Source: a virus
Strand: one strand, 5' to 3'
DNA: 64,000 bases
IMG/VR virus record: IMGVR_UViG_3300027963_000066
Span: 1 to 64,000 of that record
The translations under genes were made by a program, and so were the position numbers. The notes under the pieces were generated by a model, which did not search any database, had not been told where the DNA came from, and was given only the letters and a program-made list of their open reading frames with translations. Positions 8,291 to 64,000 of the stretch are shown here, piece by piece (within the stretch, counting starts at the first letter, position 1; each line of letters begins with the position of its first letter).

Positions 8291-8812
8291 TTATTCTCCT
8301 TTTTTTAGAAATTCTTCAATATCTAAATTATATTTAATGCTGTCAATTTTATGCACACCTAATAGATAAAGCACATAACTTGCAACACTGCTACCACGCC
8401 CTACTCCCCAAACAACATTATTTTCACGCATGGTATCGACCAAGTATTTAAGATACTTTAATAGGTCGAGCATGTTATGCTGGATAAACAATTCGAGTTC
8501 TGTTACAACTCTTTGATATTCAGTTTCATTGGAAGTTTTATCTAAAAGAAAGCCCACAATTTCAAAATCGTAGTATTCTTTGGGCATAAACCAGTTACTT
8601 TGGTTAGCTTTATCAAATTCTATTATGTTTTCAAATTCTAAATCTTCTAACAGTCTAAGTTCAAAGATTTTGTCCGCATTTTTTTCTCGTGACTGATTAT
8701 ATTGAGTTACATCACAGTCAATAGTTACATTGTTTAAATTTTTACCTGAGTATAATGCGTCAAACGCTTCTTGCTCGGTAATTGAGACTCTGCCGTAATT
8801 ATCAGTTTTCAC
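8291..8812 (-). CDS. DNA polymerase III alpha (DnaE) NTPase/palm-region fragment
   Basis: RVVTELE...WGVGRGSSVASYVLYLLGVHKIDSIKYNL matches the DnaE GRGS motif region. Confidence 0.8.
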   Translation of the reverse strand: MKTDNYGRVSITEQEAFDALYSGKNLNNVTIDCDVTQYNQSREKNADKIFELRLLEDLEFENIIEFDKANQSNWFMPKEYYDFEIVGFLLDKTSNETEYQRVVTELELFIQHNMLDLLKYLKYLVDTMRENNVVWGVGRGSSVASYVLYLLGVHKIDSIKYNLDIEEFLKKGE

Positions 8813-9359
8813 TTAATCCGCCTTTGACCACTATTGGTGCAAATCGCGGAGAGTCTTTCAAGTTGAGATCTTGCCAACTGGTATGATCGTCTGTACCTGT
8901 GTTTACTGAATCCATATTCCACCAAAAATTTCCACGCAAGTCAACACCTATGTCGTTATCGTGAGTTATTGTGTATTGTACACGATCTCCAATAACGCTG
9001 TCAACAGTTAAATGATTGATATGAAAATATTTTTCCGAAATAGTCACAAGTTTTATATAAAGGATTGAAGCAAAAAAATAATCAAATGGTTCTACAGGCA
9101 ACAACACTAGGTTTGAATCAAGATTGACTAAGGATTTAACCAGAGGATTTTCTTGGCTCACCAAAATAGAATTGTTAAGATAAGTGTCGATGAAATATCT
9201 AATCTTTCTAAACCCTAAGTTAACATCGTTGATTTTAGGATCAGTGGGTTCGACACTGAGTTTAACAGTGTAATAATTTGGTAATACTAATTTTTCGGTA
9301 ACAAGTGTACAGGCAAATTCAGAAGGCCATACAAAATTATCTAGGTGCTCAGTCAACAT
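8802..9359 (-). CDS. Hypothetical protein
   Basis: Coupled ORF. Confidence 0.6.
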   Translation of the reverse strand: MLTEHLDNFVWPSEFACTLVTEKLVLPNYYTVKLSVEPTDPKINDVNLGFRKIRYFIDTYLNNSILVSQENPLVKSLVNLDSNLVLLPVEPFDYFFASILYIKLVTISEKYFHINHLTVDSVIGDRVQYTITHDNDIGVDLRGNFWWNMDSVNTGTDDHTSWQDLNLKDSPRFAPIVVKGGLSEN

Positions 9360-9606
9360 TTATTAAATCATCTAAATCTTTGTTTTGTTTTTTAACAATG
9401 GTCTTCATATTTTCAGCCTGTCTGCGCATCTGTTCGGACTTGTACATATCTAATGCTGTGATAATTTGAGAGCATGCTCCACCTTGACCCATGCTGGCGG
9501 CTATTCCGTACTTTCTACTAAGGTCAATAATTTTATTTTCTAAATCTTGATCTTTTAACTTTCTTGGATCGCCTAGCAAGGGATGAAACATCTTATACTC
9601 CGACAA
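9349..9606 (-). CDS. Hypothetical protein
   Basis: Coupled ORF. Confidence 0.6.
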   Translation of the reverse strand: MSEYKMFHPLLGDPRKLKDQDLENKIIDLSRKYGIAASMGQGGACSQIITALDMYKSEQMRRQAENMKTIVKKQNKDLDDLINVD

Positions 9607-43773: not shown

Positions 43774-43929
43774 ACAGGCTAGTTGTCTACTTTGAGTTTA
43801 TATCGGTGTCAATATCGAAACACACCTATCTAGTTTGTCTTCAGCTATAACCTTCAAAGCCCATACAGGCTCCAGTTATAACCAACTCCCTAGCATTCCT
43901 TTAATATTAAAGGTTGCTGAACCTAGCCT
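43774..43929 (-). ncRNA. CAGCAA-stem element 1 (Y-RNA-like candidate)
   Basis: 5' AGGCUAG-G-UUCAGCAA ... CUAGCCU-GU 3', with internal hairpins. Confidence 0.7.
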
Positions 43930-43940
43930 TATAACACTAT

Positions 43941-45332
43941 TTATAGAACGCTGTAGCGATCTACATCAACAGTGGCTAGCATGATACCGTATGGAGTCAT
44001 GTCAGTACCACTTAGGATACCCTTCATAACTGCTGGACTAAACCCGCTAACCAACGCGGTACCGCGCTTGTCGAACTTAACAGGGACATTGTCCCGGCTG
44101 TTCAGGTTCCAGAATACAATGTTTGGAACTTCGTATCCTGCATCCTTGTACTTACGCTTGATCATTTGGTGAGCAGAGTCATCAAAACTTACGCATTGAT
44201 CAAACTGCATATCCGAAAGGATCAGCAAAGTCTTTGGCATGTCACTTGCGTTCACACCGCCCTTGACTGCGATGCGTAGGATTTCGTCAAACGCCGCATG
44301 TAGGTTAGTGTTCATGCCCCAGTCGCTAGAGTTCATTTGTGCCATCTTTTCAGATAGCGAACCCTTAACGACCTGTGCCTTTGGCTTAGCACTGAAAGTC
44401 AAGAATGTATCCTTGAATACACCTGTGTTCTTATCAGCACAGTACAGACCCAACGACAGGGCAATATCGATGCACATTAGGTTAGCGTTTCCGCCAACTG
44501 GGCATGACATCGAACCGCTAACGTCAACCAAAGGCATAACGCTGGCATCGCCAATGTAGTTTGGCAACGATGCCCATTGAGCATCTGCTACCACACTGTC
44601 GCCACCATGACGCAAGGTCTTGATGACATCGTATGGGTAAACCGCACTAGCGTTTACCTTGTCAGTACCTGCAGTCAAACGAGCCTTGTAGGCAGTGTAA
44701 GACGCAGAAGCATTCTTGGCAAATGCCTTGTTGTAACGAGCACTGGCTAGACTTGGCAACTTACCGAATTCGATAGAATCCCAGTCCTTTGCACACATCT
44801 TGCTTTCGACAACATTGGTCAACGCAACCAAACTCTTACGGTAGAACTTTGGAGTCATACCATAGAAGTTACGGATTTCAACCGCGATTGGGCCTTGACG
44901 AGGCATCCATTTGGCACACAGACCGTTGCGTTCACGCAGTGCATCACCGATTAGGGTATAGGCCATGTGTTTGAACTTTTCAGTCTTGAATACCAGCAAG
45001 TCGTCCCAACGGCCGAACTCGCTTACGAAAGGAAGAACTGCTTCCAGAGTTTCTGGATGCAACTTTTCCAGATGTACAAGTACATCACGGAACAGCTGAC
45101 GTTCACCTGCGCCACCACGGACATCACGTGACCAGAACGCAATCTTCATTGCAAGGTCACTGTCTTCCTGGAAAGCCTTTTCGAAGTCTGCGGTCACAGA
45201 CTTACCACGGCTTGCACCAATCTTGTAGAACAAATCTACAAGGGCATTGCCCGAATGGGCCTTTGCCTTCATACCGTTTTCGGTACGAGCTACCTCTGGG
45301 GTAGACTTAACTGCTTCAGCGAAAGTGATCAT
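43941..45332 (-). CDS. TROVE/Ro60-like RNA-binding protein with vWA domain (DUF2828-type)
   Basis: RDVRGGAGER, GRWDDLL, AKWMPR; MIDAS VDVSGSM, NTNL, LSDMQFD, IVFWNL. Confidence 0.8.
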   Translation of the reverse strand: MITFAEAVKSTPEVARTENGMKAKAHSGNALVDLFYKIGASRGKSVTADFEKAFQEDSDLAMKIAFWSRDVRGGAGERQLFRDVLVHLEKLHPETLEAVLPFVSEFGRWDDLLVFKTEKFKHMAYTLIGDALRERNGLCAKWMPRQGPIAVEIRNFYGMTPKFYRKSLVALTNVVESKMCAKDWDSIEFGKLPSLASARYNKAFAKNASASYTAYKARLTAGTDKVNASAVYPYDVIKTLRHGGDSVVADAQWASLPNYIGDASVMPLVDVSGSMSCPVGGNANLMCIDIALSLGLYCADKNTGVFKDTFLTFSAKPKAQVVKGSLSEKMAQMNSSDWGMNTNLHAAFDEILRIAVKGGVNASDMPKTLLILSDMQFDQCVSFDDSAHQMIKRKYKDAGYEVPNIVFWNLNSRDNVPVKFDKRGTALVSGFSPAVMKGILSGTDMTPYGIMLATVDVDRYSVL

Positions 45333-45355: not shown

Positions 45356-45408
45356 ACAGGATGCTTTTTTTACTATAAGAAAAGTATAAAAATTGCTGTA
45401 AGCATCCT
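45356..45408 (-). ncRNA. CAGCAA-stem element 2, in the 5' UTR of the TROVE-like gene
   Basis: 5' AGGAUGCU-UACAGCAA ... AGCAUCCU-GU 3'. Confidence 0.75.
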
Positions 45409-45483: not shown

Positions 45484-46089
45484 TTACATTGTAGGACCGT
45501 TCCCGGACTTAAAACCTACACTACCACCCTCTGCTTCAATGCGAGCAATAACATCTTCAAACAAGATAGGAGCAAAGTCTGGAAGTTGTTCTACGCAAAC
45601 GCAGTGGTATCTAACATCAATCTCATCGCTGTACAAGACTTCTCCAGTACGGGCATCGACACCTCTCGCCTTCATAACTCTGTTGGCGTGTAAGTGTCCG
45701 TGTATATTACAACCAAACCTGCCAAGGCTTGCTTCGTGAACAGGAATATGACTTAAAATAAGTCCATTCATGACATGATACGCTCGTAATTCACGGAAGT
45801 ACTGCCTGTACTCGTCATCACGGAAAATGTCGTGGTTACCACGGATCAAAACCTTGTCACCGTTTAATCGGGCCAATGTCTTTAATGCCTTTCGATTAAT
45901 AACCACATCGCCCAAATGATATATTTTATCTGTAGGCTTAACACGGTCGTTCCAAGCCTTGACCATTGCTTCGTCCATCTCATCTGCGTCATCCCATGGC
46001 CTTAACTTTGTAACACCATCGTTACGTGTGAAGCGGCATACACCTGTGTGACCAAAGTGTGTGTCGCTGACTAAAAATACACTAGGCAT
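45484..46089 (-). CDS. Calcineurin-like metallophosphoesterase
   Basis: SDTHFGH, HLGD, GNHD, SHIP, HGHLH. Confidence 0.9.
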   Translation of the reverse strand: MPSVFLVSDTHFGHTGVCRFTRNDGVTKLRPWDDADEMDEAMVKAWNDRVKPTDKIYHLGDVVINRKALKTLARLNGDKVLIRGNHDIFRDDEYRQYFRELRAYHVMNGLILSHIPVHEASLGRFGCNIHGHLHANRVMKARGVDARTGEVLYSDEIDVRYHCVCVEQLPDFAPILFEDVIARIEAEGGSVGFKSGNGPTM

Positions 46090-46099
46090 ATTCGCCCCC

Positions 46100-47125
46100 T
46101 TAAATAATGTTAACTAACGATTTTACCCACCACAAGTTTTTATCCAATGTGACCTTTGTCTTAGCTTCTATAATTATAGCATCTTTAACAATTTCTGGAT
46201 AATAATTTTTATCAAAAATAATTTCTTTGGCTCTTGCTTGATTACGTATTATTTTGTCTTTAACTTTGTCATTTAGCATCTTAAGCTCACCGATGGGTGT
46301 TTGGCATAGATTCTTAAAATTTTCAATGATCATACCAAACCTTTTTTCCATATCTGGCTCTTGATCAAAACTGTAGTCAAATATTTCGTCGTATAATTCA
46401 AACCCTAGATCTTGAATATGTCTAAAGAATCCGTGTCCAGACGCAGTTAAAAATGGTTTACCCACTAATAATGCCGTGGCAGTTTTTTCTGTTATAAAAA
46501 TATCTTTGTGAACACTTTCACTGATCAGTTGCGCAAATGATTCATGATACTGAGCGGGAATTAAGTGCTGATCAGTGTGACCAGCAAATCCATCAAGATC
46601 TAAAATTTGAGGAACAAAATATTTAAAATCATATGCAGGGTTTGGTTGTGACCACGAAACGTTGGCAAACTGTAGTAGATCATGTTTAGCAACCTGATCG
46701 ATCAGATAACATCTATGCCAATGAGGTTTATGATTAAGATAAACAAAATGTTTTTTAAATTCTAAATCCGTTTTTATTTCTAATCTAGTTTTCTTTCGAA
46801 TGACCAATTCGAAATATGTTTTCTTCAACCAACAAGTTGGCCAGAAATGTATTTCTACATTAGGGTGCGGCGGAGGAGCATCAACACTTGCTATTCCTGA
46901 AGTGATAACAAATAGTTTTTTGTTACTTTCAGTAAGAGCCGTTACAAGCCTATCCCAGTATTTAAAATCTTCATTGACCAATGACCAATATTGATATTCG
47001 TTGTGAGCAAATAAAATTACAGCATCCTTATCAGTAGTTCGGATACGATCCGGAATGGTAAGTTTAAAATCATCGGAATCCCATATATCAAAACACAGGT
47101 ATTTTAATTCTTGTGATAAAATCAT
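46100..47125 (-). CDS. Hypothetical protein (glycosyltransferase-like)
   Basis: HR..L, SES...FITEKT, GFELY..FDYSFD motifs. Confidence 0.55.
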   Translation of the reverse strand: MILSQELKYLCFDIWDSDDFKLTIPDRIRTTDKDAVILFAHNEYQYWSLVNEDFKYWDRLVTALTESNKKLFVITSGIASVDAPPPHPNVEIHFWPTCWLKKTYFELVIRKKTRLEIKTDLEFKKHFVYLNHKPHWHRCYLIDQVAKHDLLQFANVSWSQPNPAYDFKYFVPQILDLDGFAGHTDQHLIPAQYHESFAQLISESVHKDIFITEKTATALLVGKPFLTASGHGFFRHIQDLGFELYDEIFDYSFDQEPDMEKRFGMIIENFKNLCQTPIGELKMLNDKVKDKIIRNQARAKEIIFDKNYYPEIVKDAIIIEAKTKVTLDKNLWWVKSLVNII

Positions 47126-47145
47126 AATGATGCTATATCCTATTT

Positions 47146-47610
47146 TTATACTGCATACCAAATTTCCTTAAACCCTTCTTCTTCTGAAGGCATTTCAAAA
47201 CTTGCCAGCATTCCTTCTATTACAGCATCCGGAATGTCTTTCCCAGGACGGCCGTCCAATCGACGCTTTAATTCAAGCCTTGACGGTGTTTCAAATACCA
47301 CAGCAATATGATCGTAGCCGGGCAACATGTTAAATTTACGCAGACGACTTGTTACGGTAGTACTAGTTTGATCCCAAATAATGTCTCGACCCGCTTCTCG
47401 AGCTTTAACAACATCGCCTGCCATTAGATTAACACATTCTGGCATGACCTCAGTAAAAACTTCACTGTAGGTTTTGCCCATATCTTTGGCAAATTTTTCA
47501 ACATAGACATCGGTGCTGATATAGGCACAGTCGCCTGCCCAATCTTGATTAGCTACCCAGGTACTTTTACCAGAACCAGGCACTCCGACCAATTGATAAC
47601 ATTTAGGCAT
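47146..47610 (-). CDS. P-loop kinase (AAA_33/polynucleotide kinase-like)
   Basis: GVPGSGKST, ISTD, WDQT, R...R lid, EEGF. Confidence 0.8.
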   Translation of the reverse strand: MPKCYQLVGVPGSGKSTWVANQDWAGDCAYISTDVYVEKFAKDMGKTYSEVFTEVMPECVNLMAGDVVKAREAGRDIIWDQTSTTVTSRLRKFNMLPGYDHIAVVFETPSRLELKRRLDGRPGKDIPDAVIEGMLASFEMPSEEEGFKEIWYAV

Positions 47611-57522: not shown

Positions 57523-57642
57523 ACAGGTTCTCATTTTTTGTGCTACCACTACACCAACACCGCTGACCAAGCAGTGCCCAGGATTCGAACCTGGCCCGTC
57601 TTTTTTACAGAAAGATTTTAATAAGATTGCTGAAAAGAACCT
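57523..57642 (-). ncRNA. CAGCAA-stem element 3 carrying a circularly permuted tRNA-Tyr(GUA)-like domain (YrlA-like)
   Basis: AGGUUCU..UUCAGCAA; UCUUU-CUGUAAA-AAAGA; CCAGG-UUCGAAU-CCUGG; GCACUGCU-UGGUC-AGCGGUGU; UG; GUGU-AGUGGUA-GCAC; AGAACCU-GU. Confidence 0.85.
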
Positions 57643-57657
57643 AGATGGTCAAATAAA

Positions 57658-57766
57658 ACAGGATGAGCTGTCATGGCCGGGAATCGAACCCTATTTCAGA
57701 CAATGTCCCCAAATGGACGGCCTCGCGAAATGTGGAGCGAGTAAAATGGTTTGCTGTAATCATCCT
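57658..57766 (-). ncRNA. CAGCAA-stem element 4 with T-loop module
   Basis: AGGAUGA-U-UACAGCAA ... GGG-UUCGAUU-CCC ... UCAUCCU-GU. Confidence 0.75.
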
Positions 57767-59921: not shown

Positions 59922-59995
59922 TGGAGCGGGGTAAGAGAATCGAACTCTCAGCATTAGCTTGGAAGGCTAAGGTATTACCACTATACGAACCCCGC
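59922..59995 (-). tRNA. tRNA-Gly(UCC)
   Basis: Cloverleaf; loop CUUCCAA. Confidence 0.95.
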
Positions 59996-59997
59996 AT

Positions 59998-60106
59998 ACT
60001 TTATTGAAACACATTGTTGCGGCCGCAGGATACCGAGTGATGTAGTGAGTCGGAATCAAACCTTCCCAATCTACACAGTGCTCTCCACAATGCGCTTCAA
60101 TAAAGT
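59998..60106 (-). ncRNA. Long-terminal-stem ncRNA candidate (family B)
   Basis: actttattgaaacacattgt ... acaatgcgcttcaataaagt inverted repeat. Confidence 0.55.
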
Positions 60107-60308
60107 GTCTAGCTACCTACACCACATAGGCCCTAGACTGAGCAGTTACTCTGTCCATAACATTTATTCTTTTGGAAAGGTGTTATACCTCACCTAATGC
60201 GTTCCCGCCACTCCTCTACAGAGTACGGATGGTCAATGCATTACACACCTGGCGCTCTCTATGGTGACTGCCCCACCCTCCTTCGCTAACGGGCAGGAGT
60301 GCCCGGGT
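60107..60308 (-). ncRNA. Structured non-coding RNA candidate
   Basis: GC-rich, no ORF, multiple nested helices. Confidence 0.5.
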
Positions 60309-60313
60309 TTTCA

Positions 60314-60377
60314 ACAGGTTAATACTAGTTTAACGTCCTAGCAGACAGCCATTTTTTTTAATCGCTGTAATTAACCT
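60314..60377 (-). ncRNA. CAGCAA-stem element 5
   Basis: AGGUUAAU-UACAGCGA ... CUAG-GACGUUAAA-CUAG ... AUUAACCU-GU. Confidence 0.72.
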
Positions 60378-60654: not shown

Positions 60655-60743
60655 CATATAGAAACACACTTATCACTTTTCTCGACAGTGGTGTGAAGTC
60701 CTTACAACCTAAATTACATTTAGGCTAAATGTGTTTTTATATG
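60655..60743 (-). ncRNA. Long-terminal-stem ncRNA candidate (family B)
   Basis: catatagaaacacactta ... taaatgtgtttttatatg inverted repeat. Confidence 0.55.
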
Positions 60744-60816
60744 GTAGGGGCACAGAGAATCGAACTCTGATTAATAGGTTAAAAGCCTACTACTTTAGCC
60801 GTTAAGTTATACCCCC
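60742..60816 (-). tRNA. tRNA-Lys(UUU)
   Basis: Loop CUUUUAA. Confidence 0.93.
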
Positions 60817-61082: not shown

Positions 61083-61351
61083 ATTAATTATATTGTCGAG
61101 TTATGGACAGTAATCGCCCTACTGTCGTTTGTCAACCGTATCATATTCTATTATGTTTAGCATAATATTATTGAAGTTCTGATACCGTCCAGGACGCTTA
61201 TTGCTAAGACCGCTAAGTCTATGATTCGTCGTCTCCGCTTCGGTTAAGGTTATAGCAGAACTAAGTTCTACAATGAGCCGGCACTCACCTATATTGCATT
61301 GAATGACACTGGGCTGGTGAACACAGCCATTTTCCTTGACAACATAATTAA
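61083..61351 (-). ncRNA. About 270-nt ncRNA candidate closed by a long terminal stem
   Basis: attaattatattgtcgag ... cttgacaacataattaat pairing, exactly filling the Leu-Asp tRNA spacer. Confidence 0.55.
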
Positions 61352-61632: not shown

Positions 61633-62229
61633 ATGCTCTACACTGAATTTGAATCTATTGCCTTGCCCTATCTACAGTCTAAAGACCGTGTAGCAGTTAT
61701 GGTCAGCGGCGGATTTGACAGTGCAGTCTTGTTGTACAGTCTGTGTCTAGTAAAGTCCTCACTCAAACTTGCTGTCAGCATCAGTACTTTTACAGTACCA
61801 TTACACAATGATTCTGAACGATATTCAAGAATGGTCACCGCATGGGTGGGTAACAGATTTTGTCTAGACCTAACTCCTACAATATGTGGCGATCCCGATC
61901 TTGCACATAATCAAGTGGTCAAAAGTGGGATTGCTCATGCTGTAAGCATTTGCCCGAATATAATCATCGCCGAGACTACTAATCCGTCACATTTGACAAA
62001 TCTTAGTTCAGCTCCTGCACGTACACGAGCTCTTAAAATATTCCAACCATTTATCAATTGGACTAAAAAAGAAACTGTGAAATTATCTATTGATTTGGAT
62101 CTAGACGACCTTGTGTCGCTTACACACAGTTGTACGGAAAAAACTGTGCGATGTAATCAGTGCTGGCAATGCCAAGAGCGGGCCTGGGGATACGCAGAAA
62201 ACGCATACCCTGATCCGGGCTGTTATTAA
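61633..62229 (+). CDS. QueC-like PP-loop ATPase (second paralog)
   Basis: VSGGFDS; THSC...CNQCWQCQER; TAAATA-N5-ATG. Confidence 0.75.
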   Translation: MLYTEFESIALPYLQSKDRVAVMVSGGFDSAVLLYSLCLVKSSLKLAVSISTFTVPLHNDSERYSRMVTAWVGNRFCLDLTPTICGDPDLAHNQVVKSGIAHAVSICPNIIIAETTNPSHLTNLSSAPARTRALKIFQPFINWTKKETVKLSIDLDLDDLVSLTHSCTEKTVRCNQCWQCQERAWGYAENAYPDPGCY

Positions 62230-62877
62230 TTATTTTGTAGGATAAATGTAATGCTTTTGCAGTTCTGGGCGTAACGGTTCATCCCATTTACCTGCACGAC
62301 AAATATCAACCATGCCTTTTGGCACTCCAAACTCTAGCATTTCTTCATAAGAGCTAAGTTCGTAACCTTTGGCACGAGGTTGCATCATGCAGGGCATGCC
62401 CATGTTGGTCCACTGTCTATCGGGATCGGTCATGTCTTCGTAGTGCGTATCTCTGGTAGGAGTACGTTTGAAGATGGTCCTTCCTCGATCCGGAGTTTCA
62501 AAAATAGTATTGTTTCGATGAAAAATTTCAGCGGTGTCTTCACACTCTAGTATAGCCTGCATTCTTTGCAAATGATCTAGATAGCGACCATCCGGTCCTA
62601 CGCCGTTGGTACATCGTTCTATACGTCCCGGAATTCGTTCAACAATTATGGGGTCTTCATAATTTTCTTCGTGTACACCTACAATGTCGCTGAAGTTATC
62701 ACTGATCCAACGCTTCTCAACGTACCAATCGTTTTCAGTAAGCACAGTGACTTCACCTCGATAGGTTTTTTTATAACCCAGACTTCCGCCCTCAAAGGCC
62801 TCGTATTCTAAATCGTCTCCGATTTTACAAGTTAATCGTTGATTCGGTGTGTCAAAAACCCAGTCTAGTAGCATCAT
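62230..62877 (-). CDS. Hypothetical protein
   Basis: GGAG RBS, TAAATA upstream. Confidence 0.6.
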   Translation of the reverse strand: MMLLDWVFDTPNQRLTCKIGDDLEYEAFEGGSLGYKKTYRGEVTVLTENDWYVEKRWISDNFSDIVGVHEENYEDPIIVERIPGRIERCTNGVGPDGRYLDHLQRMQAILECEDTAEIFHRNNTIFETPDRGRTIFKRTPTRDTHYEDMTDPDRQWTNMGMPCMMQPRAKGYELSSYEEMLEFGVPKGMVDICRAGKWDEPLRPELQKHYIYPTK

Positions 62878-62931
62878 AGTTGTTCAAACTCCATAAGTTA
62901 TATGTGTGTTTATTTATTAATAAATATTTGT

Positions 62932-63630
62932 ATGGATAGACTTAATTACAATTCAATATACAAAGGATTTTCAAAAAAATCTGTAGACTGGGTTTCCGGG
63001 GACACCCAAGAAAAATACAAAGAAAATTTATTATCACACAGATCCGAACTTGAAAAGCACGGGTGGATTGATAATAAATTCAATTACTCTTTTAATTCTG
63101 AAGGATTTAGATGTGACGAATTTTCATCAGATCCCACAGTTATGTTTTTAGGTTGTAGTTTTACTGTAGGCATCGGCATGCCTATAGAACAAACTTGGTC
63201 TTCACTGGTTGCCAAATCTCTTGATTTAAAATCAGCAAATCTTGGGCAGGGCGGCGGATCTAATGACACTGCTTTTAGATTAGGGGTTCATTGGATCCCA
63301 AAAATTAAACCTAAGCTAGTTGTATTGTTAGTAACACCGTACCATAGGTTTGAAATAGTGTCGTCTGGAATGATACACTTGATCACGCCTCAACACCATG
63401 CTGAACAATTTACTAATTTTATGGCCGAATGGGGATCTGATGATACTAATCCATATCATAATCGCCTTAAAAATGTATTAGCAATAAAACAGGTATGTGC
63501 AGAAAATCAAATCAAATTTGTCAAACATGACTGTAACCTTTTTCAAAGATTGGACCTAGCCAGAGACCTGGCTCACCCTGGTGTAATGTCTAATCAAAAG
63601 TTAGCAGAAGATATATTAAAATTAATATAG
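62932..63630 (+). CDS. SGNH-like protein (paralog of 55799..56548)
   Basis: NSEGFR, FLGCSFTVGIG, NLGQGGGSND, ARDLAHPG; TAAATA-N5-ATG. Confidence 0.65.
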   Translation: MDRLNYNSIYKGFSKKSVDWVSGDTQEKYKENLLSHRSELEKHGWIDNKFNYSFNSEGFRCDEFSSDPTVMFLGCSFTVGIGMPIEQTWSSLVAKSLDLKSANLGQGGGSNDTAFRLGVHWIPKIKPKLVVLLVTPYHRFEIVSSGMIHLITPQHHAEQFTNFMAEWGSDDTNPYHNRLKNVLAIKQVCAENQIKFVKHDCNLFQRLDLARDLAHPGVMSNQKLAEDILKLI

Positions 63631-63660
63631 TGGCAGGCGCATTAGGGATCGAACCTACTC
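63631..63660 (-). pseudogene. tRNA 3' fragment (T arm plus acceptor 3' strand and CCA only)
   Basis: UAGG-UUCGAUC-CCUA-AUGCGCCU-G-CCA, with no 5' half. Confidence 0.65.
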
Positions 63661-63671
63661 CAAATAAATAT

Positions 63672-63745
63672 TGGCAGAGGGTAATGGAATCGAACCATTA
63701 ATAGCGGAATCAAAATCCGCTGTTATACCATTTAACTAACCCCCA
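63672..63745 (-). tRNA. tRNA-Gln(UUG)
   Basis: Loop UUUUGAU; U1 start; G73. Confidence 0.9.
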
Positions 63746-63753
63746 ACAATAAA

Positions 63754-63810
63754 ACAGGTTGCTTATTTTTCAATTAAAAGTTGAATTGGTAAATTTGCTG
63801 AACGCAACCT
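63754..63810 (-). ncRNA. CAGCAA-stem element 6 carrying a Lys(UUU) anticodon stem-loop
   Basis: AGGUUGC-G-UUCAGCAA ... UUCAA-CUUUUAA-UUGAA ... GCAACCU-GU. Confidence 0.78.
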
Positions 63811-63815
63811 AAAAA

Positions 63816-63907
63816 TGGAGGAAGGATGGTAGAATCGAACTCCAACCGGCTCATCACCGATCCATCTGTTTTCAAGACAGTGCCGGGCCCAGCCCAGATA
63901 ACCTTCC
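63816..63907 (-). tRNA. Atypical tRNA-Ser(UGA)
   Basis: Loop CUUGAAA; long variable arm; 6-bp D stem with tiny loop; bulged T stem; U73. Confidence 0.75.
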
Positions 63908-63912
63908 ATGTT

Positions 63913-63988
63913 TGGTAGTGATGGTCAGACTCGAACTGACGATAATCTCCGTATGAAGGAGGCACATTAGCCGCTATGCTACATCACT
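63913..63988 (-). tRNA. tRNA(CAU), elongator Met or Ile2
   Basis: Cloverleaf; loop UUCAUAC. Confidence 0.85.
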
Positions 63989-64000
63989 ATAATTTGGTGC

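Follow-up and report, generated by a model that had tools for sequence, protein, structure and literature searches.

A predicted small phage RNA with an anticodon-arm-like hairpin and a putative Ro60-like partner

The window analysed here is a 64,000-nucleotide (nt) stretch of viral DNA, positions 1 to 64,000 of the IMG/VR record IMGVR_UViG_3300027963_000066, a jumbo-phage fragment of 75,995 b (CheckV completeness approximately 21%), and on its minus strand (63810-63754) an element of approximately 57 nt was confirmed to lie wedged between two tRNA genes. This element is a member of a family of small RNAs, here called CAGCAA-handle RNAs, which share a 7-bp closing stem (AGGnnnn/nnnnCCU) with compensatory variation. 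Comparison of related sequences indicated that the cargo enclosed by this stem is an anticodon-arm mimic under selection, whose triplet drifts or diversifies. We favour, with moderate confidence, a Y-RNA-like phage partner RNA which presents an anticodon-arm bait in a setting of tRNA damage and repair; expression, binding to a protein and the factor that reads the arm are the presumed parts of this account.

The handle RNA family and its anticodon-arm-like cargo

The constant part of these RNAs, the handle, comprises the closing stem, an unpaired W-W-CAGCAA motif 1-2 nt past its 5′ strand and a G-U past its 3′ strand, and both of these motifs were present in the element (Table 1). A 16-nt pattern for the handle, AGGNNNNNTNCAGCRA, was matched 6 times in the window, always on the minus strand, against an expectation of 0.17, and each match was found to have a perfect 7-bp partner downstream, ending CCU-G. 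Just past the window the same record contains two further copies, one strict (64533-64473) and the other looser, which brings the fragment to 7-8 copies, all on the strand of the gene for a Ro-like protein described below. Around homologues of this protein approximately 110 distinct elements of 34-290 nt were gathered, and the ten closest orthologues of the element were placed in one alignment (A3), in which two helices were proposed and 12 pairs counted. All 120 of the 120 cells in these columns paired, with changes on both sides in 6 of the 12 pairs, a result which was reached by 0 of 500 shuffles and which slid registers came nowhere near. The covariance model built from this alignment (R1) was run over related loci totalling 1.16 Mb and gave 151 matches, each of them on the same strand as the protein gene; the element itself scored 80.9 bits.

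The CAGCAA motif was invariant in A3 and in a further alignment (A2), and was present in the other copies apart from the variants given here and in Table 1. CCGCAA was seen in its place in L029:9137-9203 and L048:356-418, where the stem was kept; the L029 copy carries the arm UUAGA-CUUCUAA-UCUAA. No description of the handle RNA family was found in Rfam or in the literature searched. A megablast of positions 62000-64000 against GenBank phages gave no match, so that this appears to be a phage without a close cultured relative.

An identical handle (AGGUUGCG..GCAACCU) with the same hairpin stem was observed before tRNA-Gln both here and in the related genome G002, and in the 5′ untranslated region (UTR) of the Ro-like gene in G004, L016 (9921-9975) and L018 (2369-2423); in the present genome that 5′ UTR site is filled by a different handle RNA (45358-45408). 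As the same cassette sits at different places in relatives, handle RNAs seem to be exchanged as cassettes between sites.

The cargo of the element had been described in the initial annotation as a 5-bp stem, UUCAA/UUGAA, with a 7-nt loop, CUUUUAA, and these letters were confirmed on the minus strand at 63785-63769. The hairpin thus has the 5-bp stem, the 7-nt loop, the pyrimidine at 32, U33 and the purine at 37 of an anticodon arm. That annotation had also allowed for a chance hairpin in AT-rich sequence, which was countered by a survey of short elements, 81 of them distinct, that were grouped at 85% identity into 49 clusters and compared with 2000 shuffles. In 22 of the 49 clusters a 7-nt loop was closed by 5 bp or more (4.9 in shuffles), 7 being the commonest loop size, and a 7-nt Y32-U33-NNN-R37-N38 loop on a stem of at least 5 bp was present in 13 of the 49, compared with 0.33 ± 0.57 in shuffles (maximum 4 in 2000). 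Similarly, a smaller, earlier subset gave a Y-U-NNN-R-N arm in 10 of 30 against 0.20 in shuffles, and when the cargo of the element itself was shuffled, only 197 of 20,000 sequences (1%) gave a hairpin of at least 5 bp with such a 7-nt loop.

The stems of these arms varied by cluster and yet paired (UUCAA/UUGAA, UUUGA/UCAAA, UACAA/UUGUA, UUCUA/UGGAA, UUAGA/UCUAA, UUUCA/UGAAA and others). Across diverged copies the loop size of 7 nt, C32, U33, A37 and A38 were kept with compensated stems, far above shuffles, and the random variation which would have spoken against an anticodon-like loop was not seen. Because loop size and sequence in the orthologues were not random, the anticodon-arm frame appears to be selected. 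Longer members of the family hold whole tRNA-like bodies, sometimes permuted, in which the first module past the handle is an anticodon arm (for example 57642-57525), and as they start in this way the minimal element resembles a tRNA mimic of which only the anticodon arm is left.

The predicted Ro60-fold protein and its neighbourhood

The gene for the Ro-like protein lies downstream of the element at a distance of 18.4 kb, on the same strand, and is flanked by two other handle copies. A search of the protein against PDB sequences with phmmer returned no Ro60 and only chance matches to integrins, and for this reason a fold search was needed. An AlphaFold (AF2) model made from 22 homologues (pLDDT 78, pTM 0.71) was compared with the PDB by Foldseek, and Ro60 structures took ranks 1-13 (E 2e-8 to 3e-4), the top matches covering approximately 500 columns, that is the full length, with E 2e-8 to 3e-5 and TM 0.55-0.58. 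The structures matched were those of the Thermus phage phiLo Ro60 (9kop, 9l5y), Deinococcus radiodurans Rsr (2nvo), Xenopus Ro60 (1yvr, 1yvp, 2i91) and human Ro60. The MIDAS motif DVSGSM was invariant among the homologues of the protein.

Members of this protein family were found in 711 GenBank phages, always at less than 60% identity, often annotated as "Ro-like RNA-binding protein" and often beside tRNA arrays; the Felixounaviruses have a DUF2828 homologue at approximately 40% identity adjoining their tRNAs. In one of these, Escherichia phage ekra (L099, MN850644.1), four unannotated handle RNAs of the form AGACCnn..CAGCAA...nnGGUCU-G were observed among the tRNA genes at 8716-9577, just after the DUF2828 gene, and one of them has a tRNA-like body. 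DUF2828/DUF7788 proteins approximately 30% identical to the phage protein are also widespread in plants, fungi, chytrids and green algae.

The Ro-like scaffold proposed in the initial annotation was upheld by these data in the form of a covarying terminal stem with an unpaired CAGCAA, present in 7-8 copies here and approximately 150 in relatives and linked to a gene with a predicted Ro60 fold. Modelled fold and gene linkage are the level at which this scaffold appears justified, and the handle would be the part bound by the protein. Pairings of Ro60 and tRNA-like Y RNAs have been described from bacteria and from phages (PMC4201824, PMC12135203), and TROVE proteins of jumbo phages with a tRNA-like partner have been read as an RNA-repair platform (Iyer et al. 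2021, PMC7824862). Phage Bas63, of the Felix O1 type, has a Ro60-like protein which acts against the ppl defence (bioRxiv 10.1101/2024.10.10.617714); this protein, Bas63 gp130, is a putative DUF2828 homologue.

Genes for a polynucleotide-kinase-like enzyme and a metallophosphoesterase were found within a few kb of the Ro-like gene (Table 1), an arrangement shared by every close relative and by many of those at 55-58% identity, and an Rnl2-type RNA ligase was found in one close relative (G004:151480-151974). RtcB was absent from five related records searched, a weak negative as all are fragments. The 353-amino-acid (aa) open reading frame (ORF) between kinase and phosphoesterase (46100-47161) gave no Pfam, PHROG or PDB sequence match; it was considered as an RNA ligase and dropped, as it has no ligase likeness. 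Kinase, phosphoesterase and ligase are the activities by which tRNAs with a cut anticodon loop are healed and sealed (T4 Pnkp/Rnl1, bacterial Pnkp/Hen1). The conserved kinase and phosphoesterase neighbourhood suggests an RNA end-healing set.

In the account that we favour, the element would be a small non-coding RNA gene of approximately 57-65 nt, the minimal member of a Y-RNA-like phage family. Its ends would pair into the 7-bp stem AGG.../...CCU, with an unpaired (U)UCAGCAA on the 5′ side and GU on the 3′ side as the constant handle, and this handle would be the docking site for the phage Ro60-fold protein. The cargo would be a bare anticodon arm, 5 bp with C32-U33-N-N-U36-A37-A38, in which the frame would be selected and positions 34 and 35 would drift or diversify. 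The RNA may be made as part of the tRNA-array transcript and excised by tRNA-processing enzymes, with the RNase P cut at the 5′ end of tRNA-Gln setting its 3′ end. Much as Y RNAs bring partner proteins to Ro, the RNA would then show its arm to some factor able to read anticodon arms. This factor may be a host anticodon nuclease, with the arm as a bait or a competitor, or an enzyme of repair or modification, with the arm as a tether.

Triplet identity and the weighing of alternatives

The loop of the element had been noted to be the same as the anticodon loop of the phage tRNA-Lys(UUU), and this was found to be correct for the 7 loop letters only, as the arm of that tRNA is GUAGG-CUUUUAA-CCUAU and the stems differ. 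The phage carries 33 tRNAs, which makes a match to a CU-NNN-AA loop likely, so the identity with the lysine loop is weak evidence. A comparison of mimic triplets with the phages' own tRNAs was uninformative too, as the tRNA sets of these phages are close to complete. Among the 15 closest relatives (R1 scores of 68-91 bits) the loops were CUUGUAA (7), CUUUUAA (4), CUUCUAA (2), CUGUUAA (1) and CCGUUAA (1), with UGU as the triplet in 7, UUU in 4, UCU in 2 and GUU in 2 (one GUU copy having C33). Column diversity was 0 at positions 32, 36, 37 and 38, approximately 0.1 at 33, approximately 0.2 at 34 and approximately 0.6 at 35; that of position 35 equalled the free 5′ spacer, and the stem and 3′ spacer were nearly fixed. 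A second orthologous series kept the stem UUUCA/UGAAA and G34 with the loops CUGUAAA, CUGUCAA, CUGAAAA and CUGCAAA, and the orthologue of the permuted tRNA-like copy (in L086) has the loop CUGAAAA, a change from GUA to GAA. Across the family 14 different triplets were found. The tRNA-Lys(UUU) identity as such, proposed in the initial annotation, did not survive these comparisons, and on the sequences compared the cargo probably mimics a tRNA arm without being a decoy for lysine tRNA in particular.

The nuclease AriB of the Escherichia coli PARIS system cuts the tRNAs for Lys(UUU), Thr(UGU) and Asn(GUU) between positions 40 and 41, and these have U36-A-A-U39 in common; the resistant tRNA-Lys of phage T5 differs at 39 and 41, and competitive inhibition was put forward by the authors as a further possible action of viral tRNAs (Belukhina et al. 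2025, PMC12409363). The same four letters, U36-A37-A38-U39, were invariant in the 15 closest orthologues, and three of the four triplets of this subgroup (UUU, UGU, GUU) are the three main AriB targets, a match that is suggestive only. As UGU and GUU are 2 of the 6 triplets one step away from UUU in positions 34 and 35, we estimated the chance of this agreement at approximately 1 in 15. A decoy specific for tRNA-Lys(UUU), held on the Ro-like protein and soaking up or blocking PrrC or AriB, would draw on these agreements, on the proposal of competitive inhibition and on the end-healing enzymes and ligase of the lineage. Even so, we regard it as very unlikely. UUU is in the minority among the closest orthologues, where UGU is commoner and UCU, which is no reported AriB target, also occurs. 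The element has U40 and G41 in place of the C40|A41 at which AriB cuts. PrrC requires a modified A37 (PMC12409363), and modification of a mini-hairpin is uncertain, as are the host and its defences. A stoichiometric decoy would also face competition from abundant tRNA.

A broader form of the bait idea, in which the clade keeps fast-changing Ro60-tethered anticodon-arm baits for host anticodon nucleases and the subgroup with the frame N-N-U36-A37-A38-U39 has AriB as its target, was judged doubtful. On this view the nuclease would be sequestered or disarmed by the Ro-like protein, or else the protein would signal the cut to its end-healing neighbours, and positions 34 and 35 would shift in an arms race.

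Several results weigh against the account of a Y-RNA-like bait that we favour. The isolated hairpin was calculated at approximately -0.7 to -1.0 kcal/mol, barely stable and AU-rich, and the minimum-energy fold of the element was a shifted register (CAAUU/AAUUG) with an 8-nt loop, marginally better than the proposed one; the orthologues were unable to form this shifted register and form the register with the 7-nt loop. The fold energy of the whole element was unremarkable (z = -1.24) and gave no thermodynamic support. Of the short family members approximately two thirds lack an anticodon-like hairpin. With R1 and a pattern scan, handle RNAs were found in a Felixounavirus and a Vibrio phage but not in a Citrobacter phage, and no clear Y-U-NNN-R-N arm was seen among them. 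The arm would thus be one cargo type among several, unneeded for the function of the handle, and may be commoner in the freshwater clade. On the protein side, Pfam gave DUF2828 and DUF7788 only and no TROVE family, the sequence of the handle is unlike the known Ro-binding helix, and the Ro60-like protein of Bas63 sufficed alone, without phage RNAs, against ppl in T7 (bioRxiv 10.1101/2024.10.10.617714). As to expression, the one metatranscriptome with exact contigs for other parts of the tRNA array (X20) gave no matching contig over 63512-64000, a result which is uninformative either way.

Some of these observations are what would be seen if the arm were a remnant or filler, that is a hairpin left from a deleted tRNA-like cargo or one which merely compacts the RNA, with the handle alone of importance. 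The weak, AU-rich hairpin, the short copies with other hairpins or none, the spacer-like variation of 34 and 35, the placing of one cassette before tRNA-Gln or in a gene 5′ UTR, and the longer copies with whole tRNA-like bodies, which have the arm at the same place past the handle, would all agree with this. However, decay should lose the loop size and C32-U33/A37-A38, which were kept in 13 diverged clusters with compensated stems, and the closest group conserves the stem, U36-A37-A38 and the 3′ spacer far more than the 5′ spacer. We therefore consider a remnant unlikely, although a real contender. A signal acting in cis, either for the processing or spacing of tRNA precursors or as a leader regulating the Ro-like gene from its 5′ UTR, would explain the tight placement between two tRNAs, the orthologous cassettes in that 5′ UTR in L016 and L018, and the finding of no promoter or terminator signal of its own around the element. 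Such a signal was thought highly improbable, as some copies are tandem or lie 3′ of the gene, a closed stem with conserved ends and variable cargo is the design of a stand-alone RNA, full-length matches of 27-33 bits were obtained to the abundant stand-alone Class I RNAs of Dictyostelium (see below), and tRNA arrays without this gene family need no such signals.

Related systems and the surroundings of the element

The present system resembles Ro60 and its Y RNAs in having a ring-shaped Ro60-fold protein with a vWA/MIDAS domain (predicted here), small RNAs encoded beside the protein whose 5′ and 3′ ends form a closing stem, and a constant protein-binding part (putative here) joined to a variable part with tRNA mimicry. 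With the phage system of phiLo and its RNAs Yrl1 and Yrl2 (PMC12135203) it has in common that it is phage-encoded and adjoins tRNA genes. It differs in that the partner is a DUF2828/DUF7788 protein with neither TROVE in Pfam nor a sequence match in the PDB, and in that the handle is a short stem with an unpaired CAGCAA and not the bulged Ro-binding helix, nor the CGAA motif by which the phiLo RNAs were found. The YrlA model (RF02553) gave no match on 63300-64000 even at E values up to 10, and among the relatives only one longer copy, L030:7113-7175, scored with it, at 30.7 bits against a gathering score of 69. YrlA itself mimics the T, D and acceptor parts of a tRNA and has no anticodon arm (Chen et al. 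2014, PMC4201824), whereas the element has none of those three mimics; Yrn1 of D. radiodurans has a 5-bp arm with a 6-nt "anticodon" loop, whereas the element has the true frame of 5 bp and 7 nt as its whole cargo.

A likeness to the Class I RNAs of Dictyostelium was found with the Rfam model RF01414, which aligned over its full length with the element (30.7 bits, E 1e-3), with the 5′-UTR copy (31.5 bits) and with eight copies from relatives (27-33 bits), always on the right strand and all below the gathering score of 41.5. The length of Class I RNAs is 42-65 nt, with a short stem that joins the ends and a variable middle (Kjellin et al. 2021, PMC7919456). Directly past the 5′ strand they carry the unpaired motif CCUUACAGCAA, where the handle RNAs have n-UUCAGCAA or UUACAGCAA, with approximately 8 of 11 letters in common, and their termini are AAG...CUGU where those here are AGG...CUGU. 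They are eukaryotic, possess a DUSE promoter of their own and have been described as restricted to Dictyostelia (Kjellin et al.), whereas the element belongs to the tRNA array of a phage and was recovered from lake metagenomes. As a direct partner of Class I RNAs the RRM protein Rnp1A/CIBP is known, and an anticodon-like cargo is not described for them. A protein of unknown function, DDB_G0281243, which is a conceivable DUF2828 member, was pulled down with a Class I RNA. A search for longer homologues of the Ro-like protein listed plants, fungi and algae but no Dictyostelium. As DUF2828/DUF7788 is widespread in eukaryotes, a eukaryotic partner protein for CAGCAA-type RNAs is conceivable, and, given the close likeness of the handles, some eukaryotic DUF2828/DUF7788 protein may have Class I RNAs as its Y-like partners.

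In comparison with the tRNA anticodon stem-loop and with the T5 tRNAs that act against AriB (PMC11464382, PMC12409363), the element has the 5-bp stem, the 7-nt loop, C32, U33, A37, A38, the UAAU at 36-39 and the place in a phage tRNA array in common. It lacks acceptor, D and T arms and can thus neither be charged nor take part in decoding. The tRNAs of T5 act by replacing cleaved host tRNAs, and competition is only suggested for them (PMC12409363). The stem of the element is AU-rich, and its residues 40 and 41 differ from those at the AriB cut site.

Table 1. Parts of the element and associated features, in window positions
Feature	Position	Strand	Remarks
Handle RNA copy, 154 nt	43776-43929	-	Immediately 3′ of Ro-like gene
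Gene for predicted Ro60-fold protein, DUF2828 + DUF7788	43941-45332	-	vWA MIDAS motif DVSGSM; Pfam; AF2 and Foldseek
Handle RNA copy	45358-45408	-	In 5′ UTR of Ro-like gene
Calcineurin-type metallophosphoesterase	45484-46089	-	Pfam PF00149; phrog_547, E 1.8e-46
353-aa ORF between kinase and phosphoesterase	46100-47161	-	
P-loop kinase (AAA_33), polynucleotide-kinase-like	47146-47610	-	Pfam PF13671; phrog_505 "polynucleotide kinase", E 1.8e-8
Handle RNA copy with permuted tRNA-like body	57525-57642	-	Order: anticodon arm UCUUU-CUGUAAA-AAAGA, T arm, closed acceptor stem, D arm
Handle RNA copy with tRNA-like T arm	57660-57766	-	
Handle RNA copy, CAGCGA variant	60316-60377	-	Without anticodon-like loop
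tRNA-Lys(UUU)	60742-60816	-	Anticodon loop identical to the loop of the element
tRNA-Gln(UUG)	63672-63745	-	Begins 8-10 nt past the element
Element: conserved GU after handle 3′ strand	63754-63755	-	
Element: handle 3′ strand GCAACCU	63756-63762	-	
Element: 3′ spacer AAAUAA	63763-63768	-	
Element: hairpin 3′ strand UUGAA	63769-63773	-	Mimics anticodon-stem positions 39-43
Element: 7-nt loop CUUUUAA	63774-63780	-	C32 U33 U34 U35 U36 A37 A38
Element: hairpin 5′ strand UUCAA	63781-63785	-	Mimics anticodon-stem positions 27-31; pairs with 63769-63773; compensatory changes in 3 of 5 pairs
Element: 5′ spacer AUUUACCAA	63786-63794	-	
Element: unpaired segment GUUCAGCAA	63795-63803	-	Conserved motif G-UUCAGCAA; presumed protein contact
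Element: handle 5′ strand AGGUUGC	63804-63810	-	Pairs with 63756-63762; 7 of 7 pairs in 10 of 10 orthologues, both-side changes in 3 of 7
tRNA-Ser(UGA)-like gene, tRNA-Sec-like shape	63820-63907	-	CCA end 9 nt ahead of the element; missed by ARAGORN

Every tRNA gene in the window is on the minus strand, like the element. The tRNA-like gene ahead of the element (63820-63907) scored 45 bits with the Rfam tRNA-Sec model, against a gathering score of 47, and has long acceptor and D stems and the loop CUUGAAA; sub-threshold tRNA-Sec-like matches were also seen in relatives (L091:2488-2572, L091:2905-2994, L086:434-518 and L030:5708-5794). Directly past tRNA-Gln, at 63620-63671 on the minus strand, lies what appears to be an orphan 3′ part of a tRNA, consisting of the T arm GGUUCGAUCC and a 3′ acceptor strand without a 5′ half, which was called by no tool. 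Lake metatranscriptome contigs matched exactly over two non-tRNA stretches within the tRNA array (59995-60145 and 61146-61335), and these spacers, which are richer in G+C, may be stable RNAs of their own. Matches to group I introns above the Rfam gathering score were observed in the tRNA regions of L067:8057-8320 and L016:3974-4177.

Ro60/Y-RNA particles are known from animals to phages, and the role of the tRNA-like part of bacterial Y RNAs is still open. In the element the variable part appears cut down to a true anticodon arm, the piece of a tRNA which known Y RNAs lack, in a lineage with predicted end-healing enzymes, and the question of which protein reads the arm thereby becomes simply testable. 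A constant frame with a changing triplet offers a way to separate a bait from a remnant, and if the arm engages anticodon nucleases it would represent a new kind of counter-defence, an RNA bait on a protein scaffold. The link to the unexplained Class I RNAs of social amoebae could supply these with a candidate protein partner, and Escherichia phage ekra, a cultured Felixounavirus, provides a tractable laboratory system for the handle RNA family.

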